This document shows, one piece after another, positions 1 to 19,562 of a stretch of DNA of 20,000 nucleotides; position 1 is the stretch's first letter; each line of letters opens with the position of its first letter. The notes beneath the pieces were generated by a model. That model did not search any database. It had not been told where the DNA came from and saw only the letters and a program-made list of their open reading frames with translations. The stretch is taken from positions 301,830 to 321,829 of the forward strand of contig BAAIJX010000026.1 of the NCBI GenBank assembly GCA_054600435.1. The letters are read 5' to 3'. Made by a program: the position numbers and the translations under genes. The stretch is from Neophaeotheca triangularis. Taxonomy: Eukaryota.

Positions 1-381
1 TACCTTAGACGTAGGGAGGTGCATTTACGGGAACATTGAGCCCCCCAAGAACAAACTTGTCATATTCAGTGCTCTTGCCACGCCGTATTAATTGGAAGGA
101 GAATGGGGCCACGCTAGTCGCTTGAGGAAGGGGCTGCGGTATTGTTCAAGACGCGTCTTCAGCGGCTGCCTCCCGCGCCTCGATGCCTCGCCTTGCTTCT
201 TCGTTTTTCATCACATCCCTTCTCCCTCTCCAGACACGCCGCCATCCATCCACACATTAATTTCACGCATTATTCCGATGTAAAATGCCAGCGTCAGGAC
301 CACATCCACCAGCTGGTCGTAGCCACATCCTCTCATATCTTGCTAACAGAGCTCATCGCCCCTGGCTCAAACATCCATGAG

Positions 382-457
382 GTCAGTCTCAAATATCATC
401 AGTCCCCTCACCGTCTTCAAATCACGCTCCCCTTTCATCTACTAATGATCGTTATAG
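382..457 (+). other. Putative intron (76 nt) of an unidentified plus-strand transcript
   Basis: GTCAGT donor at 382, CTAAT branch at 442-446 and TATAG acceptor ending at 457. A further GCTAACAG branch/acceptor signal sits at 342-349. Confidence 0.35.
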
Positions 458-1129
458 GAACCCTTCTGCCGTAGCCGCGCCACGTCAACTACCCAACGTC
501 TGTTCAGGGCCGGCTTTCATGTACCTCTCTTATCCTCCGAAAGATCGCTCACCGCTGCTACACTCGAATCTCACAAGAGAAGCTCAATCTCCGCACCATC
601 CGAGTAGTCCGTCCAGGAGCAAAGAGCTTGGATCATTCGGTTGGGGCATGGATGTCTGGTTCTGTCATGCTCCATGGACCATCTGCCGACAGCTGACAAC
701 GATCGACTGCTTCATTTGTCACTCAGTCCCGGAGTCGCTGTCAAGAGAACCTCGAGGGCCACGCGTAACCTGCGGGCTTGCCGCGGATCATGACTAGTAT
801 CTTTACTGTGATGGCCCCCAGCGTGAGATCATTTACTTGATGCTCTTTCAGGCTCGGTAAGCTAGTCCCGTCACCGCCTCGGAAGGGTCTTTCTAACACT
901 CCAACAGCAACCAGCGGAGCGACAGTAATACATATACTTGGTCTCCTTCCACCGGACGATTGCGTGTCTGCGAGACATGGGTCCCAGCCTAACTGGCCGA
1001 CGGTTCCCTCGGACCGCCCACTCGTCTTGATCACGGTCATCACATCGCTTGATGCGTCGGCCAACTCATCCCTTCCATCGCAGCTTTCCTCCCCATAGCT
1101 ACCTCCGCTATCTTGTCGTCGGTTCAGTT

Positions 1130-1460
1130 GTTACTCTCAAGTGGCTTTTGCTGCTGAGCCTATCCTTGTTCGGAACAACATCTCGTGCGATACGGCCTTA
1201 TGAACAACTCGGCATCGGGCCCGAGGCCTCTCTCAGCACAAACCAGAGCTTCGCCGCCGGATGCGAGCCGTGACGCTGGCACCAGCGATATCACTTACTA
1301 CGCCCCTGACCTCGGCTCGTGCGGCGGGAGTCACGGCGCTTTCGACAATATTGTCGCTCTCTCCCACGTTATCACGACCACCCAGAACGGAGGCAACCCC
1401 AACAACAGCCCTCTGTGCGGCTCGACCATCACCACCCACTACAGGGCTATGAGACACTAG
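1130..1460 (+). pseudogene. Truncated RlpA-like double-psi beta-barrel (expansin-like/Asp f 7-type) secreted protein relic
   Basis: DITYYAPDLGSCG...DNIVALSH......NGGNPNNSPLCGSTIT.HY matches the fungal DPBB N-terminal half. It ends at TAG 1458-1460 and lacks the D-x-C-x-x-C...DLS half. A hydrophobic signal-like stretch (KWLLLLSLSLFG) lies upstream in a different frame. Confidence 0.7.
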
Positions 1461-1790
1461 GCTGCAACCCGTGCGATACGGCCTTAATACAAGTCGTCAG
1501 CGCGTCGGTGCGGACGTGCACAGATACTACGACTGGATGGACTTCCGGTCACATCTACCTCGTGTGACAAGACCTCATGAAGACCTCGGAATCGGCAGCT
1601 CGGTTTTTGGGCCCAGCTACCACCACCACCAAACTTGTCTGTCATTCTTATCCCTTCCACCCACTTACCACATTCTTTACACCACAAACGCTTGCAAACC
1701 ACTGCTATACAGCACCTTCCGTTTCACACCAAAAAGACAACCAATCACACACCCCGGTCCCCCACGACAGCCAACGGAACTTTCACCAAG

Positions 1791-2330
1791 ATGGCGCCAT
1801 CACTATGGCGGCCTCCGCTGTCTCCACCCGCGACGAGTGTAGCGGCTCGTGCGATACGACCTTATGGAACATCCGCCAGCAATGGCACTCTTGTTGCAGA
1901 CGCTCTTCTGCTACAACGCTGCAACGGGATTGGCCTTTCGGTTTTCTCCACCTCTTGCGTCGACGCGACGCCCAGCCTATGGGCGCCTTGGCCACGGGCG
2001 CCATAGGCGACAAACGCGGCACCGTGGACATCACCGAGGCGGCGACGGTCATCGAGACCGTCGTCGTCACCCACACTGTCTGGGTCGACCCTCAACCAAC
2101 GCGGCACTGTGGACGTCACCGAGACCGCGAGGGTCATCAAGACCGTCGCCGTCACCCACACTGTCTGGGTCGACCCTCAACCAACGCCGCACTGTGGACG
2201 TCACCGAGACCGCGAGGGTCATCAAGACCGTCGCCATCACCCGCACTGTCTGGGTCGAGCCTCAACCCACTCGCGCCCGCCACGGCCACGGCCGCAGCTA
2301 CCTTGTCGGTGCGTGGGCAAGGTTTTGAGG
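1791..2330 (+). pseudogene. Degenerate N-terminal region of a secreted Thr/Val-rich protein (probably Asp f 7/RlpA-like family)
   Basis: KRGTVDITEAATVIETVVVTHTVWVDPQPT resembles the KR + 'TVT...TVWV' leader of fungal secreted wall proteins. It shares the RAIRPY motif with the upstream relic and is split across several frames. Confidence 0.4.
2013..2270 (+). repeat. Tandem repeat, 3 x 85 bp
   Basis: Equivalent positions at 2021, 2106 and 2191 (AC(C/T)GTGGAC(A/G)TCACCGAG...CACTGTCTGGGTCGA(C/G)CCTCAACC). Copies 2 and 3 are nearly identical. Confidence 0.95.
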
Positions 2331-2993
2331 GCGGAAGTGGCTCTTTCAAAGGACACTTTAGGGGTTCTGATAGCTTAATGTAATCAAGATTGGGTTTTTG
2401 CGAATGCCCATCACTGCGTCATGTCAAGGAGGTTGCATCGTCTTCGACTGTGACATTTTGTTATCTCTACCTAGGTACCTAGGTATTTACTGTAGACCTT
2501 TCTCAGCTTTGCACAAGAGCAATAATTCGGCCGCTGACAGTCTGATAGTCTACTAGGTGGCGCTTGCTTTTTTCAGGCTTACCAGGTACCTAAGTAGCTT
2601 TGGAGATGGAAGATTTGAATGGACCCACCGATCAACCGACCCACAACTACTTTCTCCACATTCAAGAAGGGTAATTCATCACTTCATCTTGTCTGTGACT
2701 GAATTTTTATTCATCTCCCGTCACTGAGCCGATCTACACCAATCGAATCCCAGCGTTATGCATGAGATCAGAGGCAATCAGCATGGCTCGATCAGCAAGA
2801 AGGGAATGTCCCATTTCAAGAACCTGCCGACGATAACTACCTTGCGCCGCACATTATGAGACATCCCCTTGCTGCGCGAGAAGTTCTGCAAGAAGTCTGC
2901 AAGAAACAACACCGTGCGGATTGCGTGGACGATAGAGAGCCATGCATCTTTGGGCCTAACACCGTCACCGATTGTGGATAATAACTTGAATGT

Positions 2994-3138
2994 TAGAAGG
3001 AGACTTTTGAAACAGGAAAACAACGCAGGACGCCCCTGCTAGCCACATAACTTGGATGTTCAGTTGGACTGAGAATCGGGGAAGTGTGGCTAGCAGGGGC
3101 GTCCTGCGTCGTTTTCCTGTTTCAAAAGTCTCCTTCTA
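2994..3138. repeat. Inverted repeat: 54-bp arms (2994-3047, 3085-3138), 37-nt spacer, 1 mismatch
   Basis: TAGAAGGAGACTTTTGAAACAGGAAAAC(A/G)ACGCAGGACGCCCCTGCTAGCCACA and its reverse complement, read directly from the sequence. Confidence 0.97.
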
Positions 3139-3672
3139 TTCCTCGGTGAGACCTTGCACTCGTTCAGCAAAGTCGTCGTTTCTCTTGGCCTTCTCTTTGC
3201 CTGCTCTTGATCCTGCTCCTGTCGGCGTCCTAGTACTCTCCTCACACGCGAGGGCACTATTGGGATCGAGAATTTGCGCATAGGCGGCTTTACCAACCGT
3301 TTGGGGATCGATTGAGACAGAGAAGCATGGCTTGCTCCCTAAAGACGCGGTTGGCTCCGTGCTAAGTGTATCTTCGCTGACAGGTCAGAGTCATTGGGGA
3401 TCCGATCCTTTGCCTTTACGAGGAGCGCAGTGGTTGGAGAATCCATCGCATATTATGAGGTCCAGTTGGCGCAGGCTTGCGAAGGCTTTGTAGATCGCGT
3501 CGATGGATCAATCTAGCGTCTTGAGAGTTTGGTAGGGGGACGATTGGTCGATGCTTTTCCTATATATCTTGCTGCGAAGATGATTGTCAGTAGGGTCTCC
3601 CAGGGAAATATCGATGGAGTCTAGACGCACCGTCCGTCCTGACCATGGCAAGATGCGCCGATGCTGGCTCCT

Positions 3673-3767
3673 CTGATTCGTAAATGTTAATAGGGGTATG
3701 CAGTGTGACAGTTTCGCTGCATCGTGAACAACGATAGACTCGATCAATCTACTCATCGTTCACTTAC
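3673..3767 (-). other. Putative spliceosomal intron (95 nt) of an unidentified minus-strand transcript or gene relic
   Basis: On the minus strand: GTAAGT donor (3767), TATTAAC branch-like site and ATCAG acceptor (3673). Flanking frames contain stops and have no recognisable product. Confidence 0.4.
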
Positions 3768-3969
3768 GCATTCTCTTCATTTGCATTCTCACCGGCGCTC
3801 CAAGTGAAGCATGCCAAGGCAATGATGTCGCTGTCGCTAAGCAAAAGCACTGACCATGCTCGCACACACAAAACCGCGCTCCCCTCCCGATTTGTTTCCT
3901 CTTCCTCTTCCCAACCTCGACATCCATTTTGCACAGCTTTTTCAACCTCCATCCACACACCACCTCACA

Positions 3970-4053
3970 GTAAGTATCTTTCGCTGTCAGCACACAGTAC
4001 AGCTCTCTCATCGCACATTCTATATGCCAATGTATTAACAAACATTCTCTCAG
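3970..4053 (+). other. Putative spliceosomal intron (84 nt) directly upstream of the repeat array
   Basis: GTAAGT at 3970, TATTAAC branch-like site at 4033-4039 and TTCTCTCAG ending at 4053. A CT-rich tract lies upstream (about 3880-3912) and an ATG follows at 4076. Confidence 0.55.
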
Positions 4054-4088
4054 GCCGACACCTCACATCGTATAAATGTCACTGGACA

Positions 4089-5031
4089 CTGGAGTTTCAA
4101 TTCGACCTGCCCAAATTCAAGCTACGTATACAGCTTGGCCAATGTCTCTGTTCTACCTTGCCCTGTTTCAGCAAACACACAATAACAGCCACTTCAGCAT
4201 ACCTCCGGACCACGACATTGCCTCCACTCCCACAAGAACATCCTCGCCCTGAGCGCATCGCCACCTCCTGGAGTTTCAATTGACCTGCCAAAAGCCAAGT
4301 TGAGTCAGCTTGGCCGAAGTCTCTGTCCCTGTGCCCACGTCTGAAGAAACACATGATAACAAATGCATCAGATCGGTCTCCACTCTCGATCCACGAGACG
4401 TTTTCGCACCCTCCAAGTTCACCATGATCTCGCCTCCGCCTACTGGAGTTTCAATTGACCTGCCGAAAGCCAAGTTGAGTTCAACTTGGCCCAAGTCTCT
4501 GTCTCTCCAGCCATGGTTTGCAAGACATGTAATAACAACTTTCCAGATGCCCTTCCAGCTTTAACAGCAAGCCTAAGGCCGCCATCGACCGCGGCATTCG
4601 ACACACAGAGGAGGATTGAGGATTGACCAAGTGCCACAAGCCAAGTTGAGTCCCAGCTTGGCCAACGTCTCTGTCTTACCTACCCTGCTTCGGGAACAAC
4701 ATGATGACAAGCGCTCAGGCACCCTCCAATCTTCGAACATCAACTCAAGCCCGCTCTCGACCGCGACATTCAACACACGGAGGAGGAAGAGAAATTGACC
4801 AGGTGCTACAAGCCAAGTTGAGTCCCAGCTTGGCTAATGTCTCTGTCTTACCAGCCCCAGTTGGGGAACAGCATGATGACAAACAATCTAGGCACCTTTT
4901 CAACCTCAACAGTCACCCTGTTGCTGCTTTCGAGCGCTTTCGACCTGAGCTTGCCGACTGGGTATGGAGGAGGATGGGAGTTGACCAGGTGCCACAGGCC
5001 AAGTTGAGTTCCAATTTGGCCATTGTCTCTG
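4089..5031 (+). repeat. Six-unit diverged tandem array (period 171-186 bp) with a conserved palindromic core GCCAAGTTG-loop-CA(G/A)CTTGGC
   Basis: Core starts at about 4116, 4294, 4469, 4640, 4812 and 4998. Each is preceded by TTGACC (TCGACC in copy 1) and followed by GTCTCTG. The intervening sequence is much more diverged. Confidence 0.92.
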
Positions 5032-6179
5032 AATTCACTGGCATAATTGATGGACACAAGATAACAACTTCACAGATTGGCTCCCTAGCTGCCCTTCTCA
5101 GGGATGTGCTGCCAACCCATCCGGCATTGCCGAAGACTTTCTTTCATCATGACATTGGCTTTTTGACCAGTGTGTGGAGAAGGACATTGTTTCTACTCGA
5201 CCGTACGATATCAAGACTTTTTATGTAGCCCTTGCCTCTGTGTTCTTATTGAATTGATGAGGTAGATCCATGCAGCACAAATTTCGGCAGACCTTCGTTC
5301 TGTTATTGATTTTTGGTAGCGGACGGTGCGTCGCTTATTATCCACGTGCGCTCAAATTAGGGGGAAGGCCTTCGATGCTCTACATCTATACCATACGCAA
5401 TCTGTCTGTCCGACTCCTTGAGAACGCAGCCCCCAACACCTCATTAACGCTAACTTCTACGTTCGCCATTCTGCCTTCGCAATTTTGTGGAACCTATTTC
5501 TCTCCTTCGACAACCGTGTCTTACATTCTCAATACAAGCCTCCAACCTATCCACAGCCGACTGTCACGTCTACGTAATCATGTCATGCTCCACCCACTGT
5601 AGCGCTCCGTGCGTGCTTCATCAGACATTGCACTTCTGATAGAGTCTTCATCGATATGATCTGCTTTTACGTGCTTCTGCGTGGCCTTGCTACTCTGGAG
5701 ACGGCCTTTTGCTATGCTTGTAGTTGAGTAAAAGGTCCAGGATTGTCTCGGGCAAGGCGAGTAGTCAATGCAAGGGTGTTCGGACTACGGCAAAGAATCC
5801 TTGCCAAATTAAAGAAGGACTGAGACTATGTCGTTGATCAAGAGGGTCACCAGTAAAGTATGGCCGTAATCGATGTGATCCCGGGGGGCGGTGTTAATTT
5901 TTGCAAAATTAACCATATCAGGTGTGGGTCTCCTTTTGTCGAACAATGGCCTCCAAGACGACGGATGTTCCGGTCTTTGATAAGATTCAAACGTTCGTCT
6001 GTGATCGTGAATTGAGAGTGTAACAGTAGTGCTTTCTTCATCGTCGCTGGCAGACCGTGCTGCTTTGAAAGCCTTAACACCAAGGCAAAGCTCTCCTGAG
6101 CACGGTCGTTATTCTAATGTGACTATTCCCACAGCCGCCGTTCCGTCGAAGCAGACTATGATCACGCGCACTTACAGTA

Positions 6180-7372
6180 TCAACAACGACCACAAGGCCA
6201 TCGTCCGAAGCAGCGACAACAAGAAAACCACAACATGTCGTAAAGAAGGATAACAGCGACAGCAACAGCCTGTGAGTTCGCCTACAACCACCTAGCTTAG
6301 ACCCTACAACCAAATTGACCGCAGGGAGACACGGGAGTTCATTTCAGAGCAGGAGGATCAGGGGCCGTATGGCAAACTTGTTGTTGAGCCCAAGCTCTTC
6401 GATCAGCAAATACGCCTTTAAAGTCCAGCCTTGAGCCTGGCCAGTGTCCGTACGGTGAGCACTATTCCGAACGACATGGGTGCCGTCTGGCCCACGCGGA
6501 GATTGTCTTGCGAAAGCTAGCTCGGCGGCGGCGTCTTGACAAGTTTGGCCACACGCCTTCAGGGGTGTGCTCCATAGACCGAAGCCAGGTCATGGCATGT
6601 TGTCTGAAACAAGGCCCTTTGAGAAATACTGGGTGAGCGCCCGGGGTTTCTGCTTCTCTATAAAAGCGTGTACCTTCGGTCTTCGTGGCTCGCTTGTGCT
6701 CCCCCCGCCCCCGTACGGTCAGAACGCTCTGTAGTGTTCTGACGGTACAAAGAGCGGCGTGTACTATACCACTGTCGCCTGTCGATCAAATATCATGCCA
6801 CTAACTCCGTTTCCAGTTGTCTGAAAATTTTGGATCGCGCCTATCGGCCAGTCTCTGGTGTATCAGCATACATGTACTGTGCGGCACCGCATCGCAATGT
6901 CAATGACGAGCTGATCCATGATGGCTTCGACGCCCAGGGCAACAATACCAGCCAGAGGCTACCAGAACGCCGATCAATCCTGCGCACACGGTTATTCTTA
7001 CTTGCCGATCACAATCATTCCAAAACAAAATGGACGCTCGCTGTAAGATGAACAGCGCCAGAGTTGTGCACATTATGCTCGGAAAGTCGGAGGTTGTCCC
7101 ATGGTGCTGGTACACGACCACGGGCACGCAGCCTTTGCGAACAACTCGCACAAGCCTGGGACGAAGAGTTTCCTTCCAGGGTTCGAAAATCTGGTTTCAT
7201 ACATTGTGCTCGGGACCGTGTAGAGCATTCCATAAGCTTCCCGGCATGTCGAAGAAAGGCCACGTCAAGGGGGCTTCCGCAGAGAGGCCAGAGACACCTC
7301 CGTCCCAAACAACAACGTCGCGAACCCGATCCACCAAACCCAAGAACTCAACCTCGTCCTCTGGGTAAGTAG
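6180..7372 (+). pseudogene. Spliced gene relic, possibly with a degenerate Ulp1-like (peptidase C48) region
   Basis: Canonical-looking introns at 6272-6324 (GTGAGT..TTGAC..GCAG) and 6633-6816 (GTGAGC..CTAAC..CCAG). The second joins open frames in phase, and the frame then runs to 7372 with one TGA (7049-7051). VNDELIH and HNHSKTKWTLAV weakly resemble the Ulp1 LND..I and HW.L motifs. Confidence 0.3.
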
Positions 7373-8250
7373 GTAAGGTAAGGCAGGTAAGTAGCAACCC
7401 CCCCCCTCGCGGGACCCAGCCCAGACGTCCAAACAACCACAACGCTAGGCCCAAGCCTAAAAAACGCTATTGCAATTTAGCGAAAACCGCTAGCCCGACT
7501 CGGCTAGCCCGCGATAGGAGTCAAGACTTCTGTCCGGGCGAAACTCAGGGAATAGTGTGCTGGGGTGCGGGTGAAGCTATTGCGTGCTTTGCTCGAAACG
7601 TCGCGGGATCGGTCGGCATGGAGCTACCTAGTGAGAGTCTTGAGGGCCAGAGGGTGGGAGTTGATGCGTTAGGCTCGGAGTTGGTGTTGTCTTTGCGACA
7701 GCGAGTTGGGATAGGAGCGGGCGAGCGGGGCGGGAGGTCGGGTCGGTTGGACATGGGACGGGGGTGGGGGGTTGATGTTTGGAGAGGGTTCCGAAGCTCG
7801 AGAGCTTTTGTCTAGAGCCCGGGGATGTTTACTGCTACAATGTCGGTCGCGCAGCGCTGCACAAAGTCAGGACTGGCTAAGCTTTGATACATAGCTCTGA
7901 TCAACCACTGCCAAAAGCCCGTCGAAACAAGAAGAGTGCAAGACTCGATGTCACGGAGAATGATATTTGACAAATCTATACCCCGCCCACGCACGGTACC
8001 TAGCTGAGAAAGCCTTCTCGAAACTTTCCAAACCCCATAAGCCCGAGCCCCTTTCCAACCGGGTTACCGCAAGTATCCAATCCCAAAACCAATGGAGAGA
8101 AAACAGCAAGAGCCAAAACAAGAAGCCCTCTTCGTGTAAAGAACCCAGAAAGCGACCGCTCCCTGTGGCAAAACCGAGAGATCCAAAGCCATTAATGCAA
8201 TCAAGCCGGCACAAGAATCCAAAGCAAAATCAGCGAACATCCAGTCCCCA

Positions 8251-11157
8251 TTACTGCCGATAAGGATCATAATCCCCCCCATGACCACGCTGACCGACCG
8301 GGGAATCCTCGCGCTCATCGCCCCTCGCGCTCCCAGTCCAGCCGGCAGACCATCCCGCACCATTCTCAGCAGCAGTATTCCCACCACCACCAAGACTATT
8401 ACCATTACCATTACCATTCGCACTCCCCTTTCCCCCAATCCCTCCGATTTTCAATGGCGCAGGCTTAACCTCGGAAACACTGACTCTCCCTCCATCCCCC
8501 CCAGCGGCTTGAACCCTCAAGAACCCCGGCGAGTCCAGCGCCCCACCGCTAGCAACGCTGTTGCGGTCGTCGTAGAAAGACTGCAGCGTCTCTTCCAGCC
8601 CTCTGCGGCGGGGAAGCGGCGTATGGGTCTCCACGTAACCCTCCCCTTCGTCGTCGTCGTCCGCATCGTCGTCGTCATCATCGGTATTGGAGGGACCAGA
8701 GGGATCAGAGAGCACGCCGACGTTTTTGACGAGTTCTACCACCCCGGCGCTCAGATTCGAAGCCGCAGCATCGAGCAGCGCGATCGGTGAAAGCCCCGCA
8801 GAAGCCGCGTGTTGTTTCGTAGCGGTTATGAGGGAGTTTGCGGTGCCCGTGACGCGGGCGCGGAGTTTGAGAATCTGCACGTTGCCGCTGGAATTTTGCG
8901 GTTGTGAAGTGGAGGAGTTGTCGGTGTGGCTATCCGCCACGGCGGACGCGCTTATGGCTTGCACGGCGATGATGACGGGTTTGAGGCTTTCCAGGAGGAG
9001 GGATTCGGTTTCGGCTGGGTCGGAGGTTTCGGCGCGGGCGTTGCGCAAGAGGTCCGAGATGGAGGTTTGGAACGCGGTAATTTGGACGTCGTGGACGCGG
9101 CCGGTGGGGGTAATGAGAGCGTTGCGGGTGGTGCGGTCGAGTTGGCTTTCACTGCTGAGGAGGTTGTGGCCGTTTTGTTGTAGCCCTAGCGTGGAGGCGC
9201 GGAGATTTTTATTCAGGGCTCTGACGCGAGCGCAGCGTTCGCGCCATTGTCCATTTTGGGTTTCGAGGTGCGTGATGCGGTGGGCGAGCTTCTCTTCGCG
9301 CTCCACGGCGGCGTCATTGGATTGTGCTAGGTCGCGCATCTCTCGGAGGTAGAGGGTTGCTTCTTCGCGAACTTGGGTGGTTAGTTTGGCTTGCTGTTCG
9401 AGTTCTCGCTCTAGCAGTTCGATGCGCTCGCGGTCTTGCTCGTTACCTGTCGCAGGAGCGGGTTGTTTGCGCAAATCGGCGTTCTCGCGTTGCAAATTTG
9501 TCAGTTGGGCGTGTAAGGTGTCCGTCTGAGCGTGTAAATTATCGAGCTCCGCTGCCTGGTCTTCGTTCTGCAATTGTAGCTTGTCGAGTTCGGCGAGTTG
9601 GCGTTGTAGGTCTTCGTTCTGGGTCTGCGCCGTGCTTTGCAAGCGGTTGGCGTCTTGGAGCTTTTGCTCTAGCTCTTTGCGAAGCTCATGCCATTCGTTG
9701 CGTTCGTTACCGACGCCGACTTCACGGTCGCGGCTGGTCGTTCGGGCCTTTTCAAGCTCCGAGTCTTTCTCCAGCACACGGCTTTCGAGCTGTTCAAGCA
9801 TTTCCCGGAGTTCCATTGTGGTAGTCTTGAGAGATGTGATTTCCGTCTCTTGCGCCTTGATGGTTTCGCGATCCTTTTCGTTTCCTTGACCGGCCGAATT
9901 GAGCACAGAAGATATGCCACCCATGCTATACTGGCTGACACCACTCAAGACTTTTCCATCACTATTATTGTCCAACGCGAATGCGTCACTGCCTCTCTGC
10001 GCCGCCTGATCAGCTTCATCCCCAGACTCATCCTCCTCAACCATGGTCGACTTGTTAGGCACGATAGTATTTTGCGCAAAAGTTTTGGGCAAAGGACGGC
10101 CGAAAGACCCGCCTTCGCTGCCATTGGTAGGCGCTCGAGGTCTGCCAGCGGGTGGTGGACCCCCAGGACCAGGGCTGTTACCCCGGAAAGACTGGTATCC
10201 TGGCTGCGGAGGGCCCATGCCGTTCGGTCCACCAGTCGGACTCAGGGGAGGCGGAGGCCCTCTCCCACCGGCAGGCGGGGGCCCTCTAAACCCCGACCCA
10301 GGCGGTCCGACAGGCGGACGCATGCCATTCCTACTTGGCCCGCGCGCGCTGCTAGCCGTACTGGCAGGCCTATCGATATCCTCGACAGCGAACCTCGGGA
10401 TCCGCCTCTCCAGCTCATAAAAGACATCGGTAGCCAACTGCCTGAACCGCTCAATGGGCAATGTGCTAAGTTTTTGCCGTGCCTGGTTTCGCTTGGGATG
10501 GAAATTAGGGCGAGGGAGGAGGTATTTGGGGACTTCGCGAACGCGTTTGAGCCGGTCGTCTTCGCGCCGGATGAGCTCGTCGTAGACGTCGGTGCTGAGC
10601 TCCATAAACTGCGTCACGCTAAGACGGAGCAACTTGTCGCGCGCGCGGTTGGGTTTGGGATTGCCTTGCTCGTCGCGGAGGATGGCGGCCAGGTAGTGTT
10701 TTAACACGCCATAGTGTCTTCCCAATTGCTCTTCGCTCTCGGGTCTGAAACCGTTGCTCTTGCTACTGTCTCTATCCCTGTCTCTTCCGGGAAGCGGCCC
10801 TCCGTTGCGTCCTGGTCCGCCCATGCGACCGTCATTGCTCATACCCATGCTGCTCGCCGAACTGGGTGCGCGGTTCATGCTTGTGCTTCTGCTGCTAGCG
10901 GCGCCGCTCGGTCTGGATACGTCTGTACCAGTGCTTGGGTGTTGTGATCCTGGTGGTGAGGCTCGTGGTTGGGGAGGAGGTCGTCGCTGGCCCGGTTGCG
11001 TCGCGCCATATGGACCGCCTTGGTATGCTATATCGTTTGGAGTGCCTCCTATGCTGTTGCTGCCGCTGCTGGGAGGTCCCATGTTGCCATAGCGCATAGT
11101 CAAGGAGTCATTGCTGTCGTTGGACAAGGGAGAGGTGGGAGGAGGTGGACGGTTCAT
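8251..11157 (-). CDS. spa2: Polarisome scaffold protein Spa2 (SpaA/SPA-2 homologue), about 968 aa, apparently intronless
   Basis: Long open frame with two Spa2-homology/GIT_SHD repeats (RARDKLLRLSVTQFMELSTDVYDELIRR; RNQARQKLSTLPIERFRQLATDVFYELERR), a Pro/Gly-rich linker, a central coiled coil (E/Q/L-rich) and the conserved C-terminal block (LRARVTGTANSLITATKQHAASAGLSPIALLDAAASNLSAGVVELVK). Start placed at the first ATG (11157, MNRPPPPTSPLS) rather than the GTG at 11238. Confidence 0.93.
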   Translation of the reverse strand: MNRPPPPTSPLSNDSNDSLTMRYGNMGPPSSGSNSIGGTPNDIAYQGGPYGATQPGQRRPPPQPRASPPGSQHPSTGTDVSRPSGAASSRSTSMNRAPSSASSMGMSNDGRMGGPGRNGGPLPGRDRDRDSSKSNGFRPESEEQLGRHYGVLKHYLAAILRDEQGNPKPNRARDKLLRLSVTQFMELSTDVYDELIRREDDRLKRVREVPKYLLPRPNFHPKRNQARQKLSTLPIERFRQLATDVFYELERRIPRFAVEDIDRPASTASSARGPSRNGMRPPVGPPGSGFRGPPPAGGRGPPPPLSPTGGPNGMGPPQPGYQSFRGNSPGPGGPPPAGRPRAPTNGSEGGSFGRPLPKTFAQNTIVPNKSTMVEEDESGDEADQAAQRGSDAFALDNNSDGKVLSGVSQYSMGGISSVLNSAGQGNEKDRETIKAQETEITSLKTTTMELREMLEQLESRVLEKDSELEKARTTSRDREVGVGNERNEWHELRKELEQKLQDANRLQSTAQTQNEDLQRQLAELDKLQLQNEDQAAELDNLHAQTDTLHAQLTNLQRENADLRKQPAPATGNEQDRERIELLERELEQQAKLTTQVREEATLYLREMRDLAQSNDAAVEREEKLAHRITHLETQNGQWRERCARVRALNKNLRASTLGLQQNGHNLLSSESQLDRTTRNALITPTGRVHDVQITAFQTSISDLLRNARAETSDPAETESLLLESLKPVIIAVQAISASAVADSHTDNSSTSQPQNSSGNVQILKLRARVTGTANSLITATKQHAASAGLSPIALLDAAASNLSAGVVELVKNVGVLSDPSGPSNTDDDDDDADDDDEGEGYVETHTPLPRRRGLEETLQSFYDDRNSVASGGALDSPGFLRVQAAGGDGGRVSVSEVKPAPLKIGGIGGKGSANGNGNGNSLGGGGNTAAENGAGWSAGWTGSARGDEREDSPVGQRGHGGDYDPYRQ

Positions 11158-11779
11158 GATCAAAGTGGGAATGGGCGCAAAGCCATGCAGCGGGCAGCAA
11201 CAAGACTCGCAATGCCACGGGTCGTGACTCGTGTGCACCGTCGATGGTCGGGTGGAGAAACAGGGTGTTTGACAAAGTTCTGCTGGTGACGCAAGGAGAG
11301 AGCAGTTGTTACAGCCTCTCTCTACTAGGTACTGCCCGTTTCACCAGAACCGATCGAGTCGAGTCGCAGCTGGCTGACAAGCAAAAGCAGTTGCCGTGCC
11401 TGGGTTAAGTCGAGTAGGTATATGTATGTTATGTTGTGATAACGAGCGAGGGACAGCTTTGGTAGGTAAGGTAGTAGTCAAGGAATGTAGTGTATGTAGT
11501 ATACAGAATGGCATAATAAAATAGAGAAAAAGACGCCTGCCTTGCCGGAAGTATAAAGTCCCCCATGCCCCTTTGGCTCCCACGATTGATGAAGCTGCAG
11601 AAAGGGCGGCGACTAGGCAGACGCCCTACTAAATTAGTGTAGTTGGACCTGCATAACAATGCAGATGTATCTACTACGACTGTAGGTATCCATGGAGAAG
11701 AGCAATTTGTGGAGAGATAGGTGGGCGGCCGGCTTCAGGGGTAAGAGGGCGGGAACTGATCTGAGCTGTTAAATGAGAG

Positions 11780-18813: not shown

Positions 18814-18927
18814 AGGCCGTGTAACATCATCTCCCGCCGTGGCGAATAAAATTTCGACATATCTTGTACATAATCATGTCTTAGAAGCGCAAAACTCCCG
18901 AGCTTCAGTTCCCTTCATCCACAGCTC

Positions 18928-19302
18928 GCTCTCCCATCGTATACGGCTCTCCCATTGTACACGGCTCTCCTATCGTACACGGCTCTCCTATCATACACAG
19001 CTCTCCCGTTATATATAGCTCTCCTATCGTATATAGCTCTCCCGTTATACATAGCTCTCCTATCGTACACGGCTCTCCTATCGTATACGGCTCTCCTATC
19101 GTACACGGCTCTCCTATTATACATAGCTCTCCTATCGTACACGGCTCTCCTATCGTATATAGCTCTCCTATCGTACATAGCTCTCCGATTATATACGGCT
19201 CTCCTATTATACATAGCTCTCCTATCGTACATAGCTCTCCGATTATATACGGCTCTCCTATTATACAATGCTCTCCGATTATACACAGCTCTCCCATCAT
19301 AC
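18928..19302. repeat. 18-bp minisatellite, about 21 copies (consensus GCTCTCCTATCGTACACG)
   Basis: GCTCTCC recurs exactly every 18 bp from 18928 to 19288. Variation is almost entirely C/T and G/A. A 54-bp higher-order duplication is present (19162-19215 vs 19216-19269). Confidence 0.98.
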
Positions 19303-19562
19303 CGCCTCAACGCATGCAACGTCTTTGCCGACAGGAGCTGGGGTTTAAGACCGCCGTGCTCTCTCTCTTGCTCGGAAATCTTTCAACTCAGCTTCCTCGT
19401 AAAATTCCAGGTGGGTAGTCTAAATGGACACGCCTCCCGTCCCCCAGATTGCGGGAAATCGTCCGTGAGCTAGCTCGGTCTGGTCTGGGAGGGTTTGGTT
19501 TTGGGCCCGATCACCTACCTCCCTAGCGGCTTGCAATGCTGGCTTGGATACTGAAGATCGGC

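Follow-up and report, generated by a model that had tools for sequence, protein, structure and literature searches.

A head-to-tail array of hairpin-bearing repeats in Neophaeotheca triangularis that may be a dead repeat-protein gene

The 20,000-nt stretch of Neophaeotheca triangularis DNA analyzed here (contig BAAIJX010000026.1, positions 301,830 to 321,829; hereafter the window) contains, at one locus, six homologous head-to-tail units of about 175 nt each and a probable seventh that lacks the hairpin. We put at about even the chance that this array is a dead, orphan, lineage-specific repeat-protein gene, the cores of which were homogenized by conversion and template switching and the hairpin loop of which is an indel hotspot. 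The original prediction had described six conserved, covarying hairpins separated by diverged spacers, and had named a decayed repeat-protein gene with a palindromic hotspot as the alternative. Several independent, moderate signals point to that alternative, and it is now the preferred reading.

The 5' arms of the hairpins start at 4118, 4296, 4471, 4642, 4814 and 5000, in agreement with the predicted six units and their periods of 178, 175, 171, 172 and 186 nt. The CT tract, intron and ATG that had been proposed upstream are present in the sequence. The features of the array are as follows.

3880 to 3969, plus strand: CT-rich tract, a putative 5' leader exon
3970 to 4053, plus strand: canonical-looking candidate intron (donor GTAAGT, branch ATTAAC, acceptor CAG)
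4076 to 4078, plus strand: ATG with A at -3, in the repeat-peptide frame, 22 nt past the candidate intron
4102 to 4150, plus strand: unit 1 core, degenerate, with a 7-bp stem, +1 in the upstream block and +1 in the loop
4181 to 4197, plus strand: second motif, RATRACA ... YAG, of unit 1 (equivalents start at 4355, 4531, 4703, 4875 and 5060)
4280 to 4325, plus strand: unit 2 core, 9-bp stem at 4294-4314, 3-nt loop (-2)
4304 to 4564, plus strand: open frame of 86 codons
4455 to 4501, plus strand: unit 3 core, perfect 9-bp stem at 4469-4490, AGUU tetraloop (-1)
4623 to 4673, plus strand: unit 4 core, 9-bp stem at 4640-4662, 5-nt loop
4650 to 5228, plus strand: open frame of 192 codons, with the unit 5 and 6 cores in the peptide frame; no homologue
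4795 to 4845, plus strand: unit 5 core, 10-bp stem
4981 to 5031, plus strand: unit 6 core, 10-bp stem
5163 to 5215, plus strand: probable degenerate seventh unit, hairpin missing
5216 to 5257, plus strand: hydrophobic C-terminal stretch, possibly anchor-like, and stop (5255-5257), in the peptide frame past the in-frame stop at 5150-5152

Whole units are 47-75% identical in pairwise comparisons and their spacers can be aligned, which marks them as diverged homologous copies. The spacers are thus diverged, as had been proposed, but not unique, and a CRISPR-like repeat-spacer design was rejected on these grounds. The second motif, which was absent from the original prediction, occurs in all six units as RATRACA followed by YAG 11-12 nt later. 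The probable seventh unit follows unit 6 at a distance of 182 nt, and its three recognizable blocks share one frame; its score was significant against shuffles (P = 0.0075) and was equalled by 2 of 2267 flank windows, while both the nhmmer profile and the covariance model missed 5163-5215. An in-frame 3-nt indel divides units 1-3 from units 4-6. Units 3 and 4 have in common an out-of-frame 88-nt tail, which suggests a duplication after frame loss. In unit 5, just upstream of the core, differences cluster within 6 nt, and this patch has complementarity to the GTCTCT block.

The conservation claimed for the core stood up to simulation. In the six-unit alignment, the best 50 columns have an identity of 0.825 and 31 invariant positions, compared to a neutral expectation of 0.63 +/- 0.03 and 13.5 +/- 2.4 (590 matched simulations), and neither value was reached in any of 913 neutral simulations, which included indels and realignment. 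A core of about 50 nt has been kept beyond neutral drift and is constrained at the nucleotide level. Contrary to what a simple relic would lead one to expect, the silent sites of this core do not drift at the neutral rate. Third positions of the 15 core codons are 0.82 identical, compared to 0.53-0.69 under protein-only selection without conversion (P = 0.017 to <0.001, for a core picked after it had been seen). Since protein-only selection gives too little third-position identity, conversion would have to be added. Among units 2-5, 12 of 15 core third positions are invariant versus 8 of 30 in the spacer (P = 0.001; P = 0.08 for four-fold sites alone). Between units 4 and 5, 4 of 59 core sites differ, compared to 20 of 73 in the flanks (P = 0.002; with adjacent differences merged into one event, P = 0.13), even though the shared tails of units 3 and 4 suggest that duplication came after frame loss. 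Six of the nine invariant third positions fall outside the stem, and these frozen silent sites are the part that our preferred reading leaves unexplained.

One peptide frame can be traced from the ATG at 4076 through all units and the hydrophobic tail to the stop at 5255-5257. The repeat is about 58 codons long, with the core peptide IDxxPxAKLSxxLAxVS, and the first 59 codons of the frame at 4304-4564 make up one whole repeat in the peptide frame, from the unit 2 3' arm to the unit 3 5' arm. Threading this frame needs nine frameshifts (three each in loops and tails, two in first spacers and one in the upstream block of unit 1) and meets a single stop (5150-5152), so that no full-length protein is predicted to be made now. 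The 11 diverged segments needed no stop, compared to 5.1, 2.8 and 4.9 under the nulls (P = 0.004, 0.045 and 0.008); this test excluded the unit 6 tail, which holds the one stop, and stops are scarce locally in all three frames (10 in 627 positions). A codon model, for which 67 long frames in 200 kb of the same genome served as the training set, ranked the threaded frame first of six (-0.022 versus -0.09 to -0.16), with P = 0.001 against base shuffles and a place among the highest 5% of 342 local non-genic windows. Of 63 real coding windows, however, 99% score higher, and the GC3 of 0.49 falls short of the 0.62-0.73 in genes. Changes at the three codon positions number 37, 23 and 33 steps, with second positions changing least. 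Thirteen codons differ by a single base between the closest pair of units, eight of them synonymously (P = 0.11; P = 0.48 when all six frames are considered). Each of these signals is moderate and the copies are not independent; taken together, they make a coding past the likelier history of the array, as far as the sequence can tell.

The ancestral gene would have had a Pol II leader with an intron, an ATG at 4076, six or seven repeats, each about 58 codons long, and a hydrophobic tail, and the matching anatomy is present in the repeat frame (candidate intron 3970-4053, ATG 4076, terminal stop 5255-5257). The candidate intron is one of four on the plus strand in 1-8250. In this account, the core codons form a 9-bp quasi-palindrome by coincidence. 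As long as the gene was functional, selection on its core may have held the copies similar enough for short-tract conversion, which would also have levelled silent sites between cores, while the linkers and one core codon probably drifted or were diversified. The palindrome may fold transiently in single-stranded DNA; such folding would lead to template switching that repairs the arms, while the loop gathers small indels. From unit 7, the hairpin was presumably lost. After the frame decayed, the locus would have been left without a function.

Signs of palindrome mutation are present: loop frameshifts, with three of the nine frameshifts in the few loop bases, the hairpin-less unit 7 and the clustered patch of unit 5. 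In PMC8604942, template switching that homogenizes arms of at least 7 bp is documented in yeast genes, and slower change of short inverted repeats in bacteria is cited. The array resembles such quasi-palindrome hotspots in its arms of 7-10 bp and short spacer, in changes that improve arm symmetry and in the clustered change of unit 5 complementary to a nearby block. Unlike them, it has invariant TTGACC and GTCTCTG blocks outside the arms, and no spacer inversion was seen in the array. Against a relic stand the six of nine invariant third positions just mentioned, which template switching does not help to explain, and the ratio of nine frameshifts to one stop, which is high. A neighboring dead copy aligns in five blocks; one of them duplicates another, and the other four show 2 gaps versus 82 mismatches, although BLAST blocks undercount indels. 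The array fits a decayed repeat gene except that no parent was found, in searches of low power, and that the silent-site constraint is anomalous.

Concerted evolution with hypervariable codons is known from fungal HET-E/HNWD WD40 repeats and from TALE and PRDM9 arrays. As in that pattern, the units are head-to-tail and of coding length, the cores are near-identical at silent sites, the core has one fully variable codon and the larger indels are in frame. The variable patch between the stem and GTCTCTG consists of one whole codon and the preceding silent base. Unlike those arrays, two thirds of each unit have diverged rather than a few codons, there is no family match or homologue, and nine frameshifts have accumulated.

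By DNA and pattern searches, the 25.4-Mb genome has a single copy of the array. Of the 11 genome matches to TTGGC-N4-GTCTCTG, six are in the array and five scattered (control, 3 matches). An intact homologue of the peptide repeat, the check that had been proposed, was sought as parent or orthologue in the same genome and in protein collections, and none was found. Protein searches gave no match among 1199 longer and 108 similar-length candidates, and no protein of the array turned up among the annotated proteins of the collections, which include the neighboring DUF3605 protein. The single representative match, P0001, was rejected as a translated satellite that matched the tail only, through summed weak stretches (best 26.6 bits). 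A protein atlas search gave no usable match (best later score 0.84 at low recognition), Pfam returned no family for any array piece submitted, and exact pattern scans of metagenome and viral contigs gave no matches. At four metagenome Spa2 loci (48-51% identity), neither blastn nor the covariance-model search that had been suggested found the array; the model covered the window and eight loci (71,088 bases), and remote paralogues in the genome were excluded by DNA and pattern searches only. The best named DUF3605 homologues, from Teratosphaeriaceae, are only 53-56% identical, which makes a dothideomycete lineage probable; with no close relative in the collections, the homologue search had little power. 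No matching fungal element was found in the open-access literature covered.

The window is ascomycete DNA, in which long frames encoding a Spa2-like protein, a DUF3605 protein and HMG-CoA reductase are intact. Two genes bound the interval that holds the array.

Left flank (L009), 4662 to 6236: proline dehydrogenase gene
Window, 8251 to 11340, minus strand: Spa2-like protein frame, long and intact

In the roughly 12 kb between the proline dehydrogenase gene and the Spa2 stop, no intact gene was found; gene fragments and local duplications are the content of this interval around the array. An intact 370-codon frame on another contig (C14; L018 1186-2295), itself with a weak DPBB_1 match (E = 0.02), has a scrambled and truncated copy at 1203-2291 of the window (79-89% identity). 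The pieces of this copy are in altered order, and one of them is present as a triplication with a period of 85 nt. An inverted duplication at 2994-3138 has 71-nt arms that are 87% complementary across a 3-nt gap, and is single-copy by genome search. On the minus strand, an intron candidate at 3767-3673, 4 nt past an ATG, has donor and branch hexamers identical to those of the plus-strand intron, which suggests a divergent transcription unit that may be dead. For the gene-like frames at 3136-3759, searches gave neither a paralogue in the genome nor a Pfam match. In the left flank, an isolated SF3B1/Hsh155 HEAT-repeat fragment of about 125 residues (L009 7714-8736, minus strand; E = 3e-37 to solved chains) is embedded in an otherwise unrelated frame, and about six 69-nt tandem units (L009 1608-2006) are in frame as a 23-residue repeat. 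An 18-nt minisatellite of about 21 copies, with a 54-nt higher-order period and several open frames, occupies 18874-19356 of the window, downstream of HMG-CoA reductase and near the contig end. A distant metagenome contig (L012 1-14584) conserves the order HMGCR, DUF3605, Spa2 and continues with an ING/PHD gene; the window differs from it on the ING/PHD side of Spa2.

The main alternative, which we regard as possible, is that the array is a spliced Pol II non-coding RNA, perhaps exapted from a repeat gene, with six hairpin modules under selection. Each module would comprise the upstream TTGACC block, a 9-10 bp stem with an AG-starting loop and the GTCTCTG block, and could act in a multivalent platform for RNA-binding proteins or as an RNase III-type site at which pieces of about 175 nt are cut. 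This reading accounts best for the frozen non-stem blocks, the nucleotide-level constraint including both silent sites and blocks outside the stem, and in units 2-6 the indels fall between invariant blocks, not within them. The predicted 9-10 bp stem forms in copies 2-6, while copy 1 folds only 7 bp; a 9-bp stem turns up in 1.7% of shuffled units. Pair types are those predicted, with U-G in three copies, U-A in two and C-G in one at one pair of the 9-bp stem, G-C in five and G-U in one at its neighbor, and a basal pair that is A-U once, G-C once and unpaired in four of the six. Five of seven inferred stem substitutions preserve pairing (P about 0.035). The claimed covariation was not supported: none of the nine stem pairs changed on both sides across the six copies, and the covariation score was reached by 278 of 500 shuffles, in a test that had little power with six paralogous copies and for a structure that also held a mis-registered 3-pair outer helix. 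The preference for a plus-strand RNA was borne out, the plus-strand hairpin being the more stable in four of six copies, and the candidate leader intron lies upstream on the same strand. All six hairpins form locally in the whole-array fold, but its energy is ordinary (z = 0.12), which speaks against a structured whole transcript, and single-unit folds range from z = +0.41 to -2.3, below -2 in unit 3 only. Loop lengths relative to the 5-nt loop are +1, -2, -1, 0, 0 and 0 in units 1-6, as predicted, and indels per base are about ten times as frequent in the loop as in the equally free spacers, which suggests mutation rather than tolerance. Moreover, the residual coding signal would need history or chance as its explanation, no other copy was found in the genome (by DNA or pattern), the metagenomes or the four distant Spa2 loci, and an Rfam search of 2800-6500 (E up to 1) gave nothing in the array and one weak match outside it, at 5604-5655.

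Known RNA classes gave partial likenesses. The loops open with AG in five of six copies and their second base, G, is invariant; this G and the short-loop cap recall the AGNN substrates of Rnt1, the yeast RNase III, as described in PMC13183374. A true AGNN tetraloop forms in only one of the six folds (unit 3), and the 7-10 bp stems contrast with the Rnt1 cuts at -14 and +16 given there (PMC13183374), so the definition of a substrate by an A/UGNN tetraloop and a stem reaching -14/+16 does not describe the array. Hairpins on a candidate non-coding transcript also recall fungal milRNA and other hairpin small-RNA loci. Precursors of milRNAs have a duplex long enough for a 20-25 nt small RNA, and phased reads. 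With 7-10 bp, the stems fall short of a 21-nt duplex; they do not support a milRNA precursor, nor the small-RNA precursor of the original prediction. Introner-like introns have a canonical donor, a CTRAC-type branch site, YAG and dispersed copies. The motif-to-YAG distance of 11-12 fits the branch-site peak of this genome, 10-11; introner-like or repeated introns were rejected because ATRAC is disfavored after donors in this genome (7 versus 36 CTRAC; control, 17), the units have no canonical donor and the locus is single. SnoRNAs are marked by RUGAUGA and CUGA boxes (C/D) or by an ACA box 14-16 nt from the pocket (H/ACA); with ATGATGA in two of six units and an ACA motif 45 nt from the 3' arm, a snoRNA cluster of either type was rejected. 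No tRNA was found, and telomerase RNA was rejected since the window has no template motif. RIP was also rejected (TpA/ApT 0.47), as were, by eye against consensus sequences, hammerhead, twister and HDV cores, a Pol III B box, a Helitron end, a kink-turn and a slippery site. The TCTCTGT block (4144-4151 and equivalents, in five of six units) is the complement of the ACAGAGA box of U6 snRNA, probably by chance; its register misfits a 5' splice site.

Two further explanations are less probable. That the array is a DNA element, with inverted PacC/Rim101 sites (GCCAAG ... CTTGGC) and flanking co-factor sites forming a pH-responsive enhancer of divergent units at about 3770 (minus) and 3900 (plus), we consider improbable. 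The stem arms match the GCCARG consensus given in PMC7355564, with 10 such hexamers within 4134-5003, mostly in inverted pairs; the unit spacing is near nucleosome length, and the minus-strand intron candidate suggests an adjacent bidirectional promoter. Yet arm spacing varies over 9-11 nt and 2 of 12 arms are off consensus; GCC AAG and CTT GGC are ordinary codon pairs, and no intact gene start was found within several kb. Nor is the spacing preferred genome-wide, as 8 of 40 other genomic inverted pairs fall in these 3 of 18 spacings. Genome-wide, GCCAAG-N3-20-CTTGGC occurs 44 times versus 8 for a reversed control, probably through codon usage or PacC sites. It is very unlikely that the gene is intact or nearly so, with frameshifts that are assembly errors at homopolymers and hairpins. 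The single in-frame stop and loop deletions that shorten C runs would fit such errors, but no frameshift interrupts five neighboring or related genes (299-1108 codons), the out-of-frame tails of units 3 and 4 are equal in length, and the protein collections yielded no annotated protein of the locus. Splicing does not rescue the frame either: per-unit introns were rejected since a hand-worked model, in which the donor is either GTCTCT or the invariant GT of the loop and the acceptor is the conserved YAG, leaves the exon phases mixed. All other causes together share a very slight remaining probability.

A combined possibility, which we hold to be doubtful, is that the mRNA of a dead repeat-protein gene was kept as a spliced fungal lncRNA with one selected hairpin module per former repeat, serving as a six-fold scaffold or an RNase III-processed polycistron, its arms doubling as inverted PacC sites. 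No such passage from repeat gene to non-coding RNA was found for filamentous fungi in the literature covered; if expressed, the array would give a dated example, open to testing, of a repeat-protein gene that became a multi-hairpin non-coding RNA. Under the preferred reading of a dead repeat-protein gene, the array would be an ordinary gene relic, and it would caution that fungal arrays of conserved hairpins and diverged spacers can arise from repeat genes and palindrome-driven mutation.
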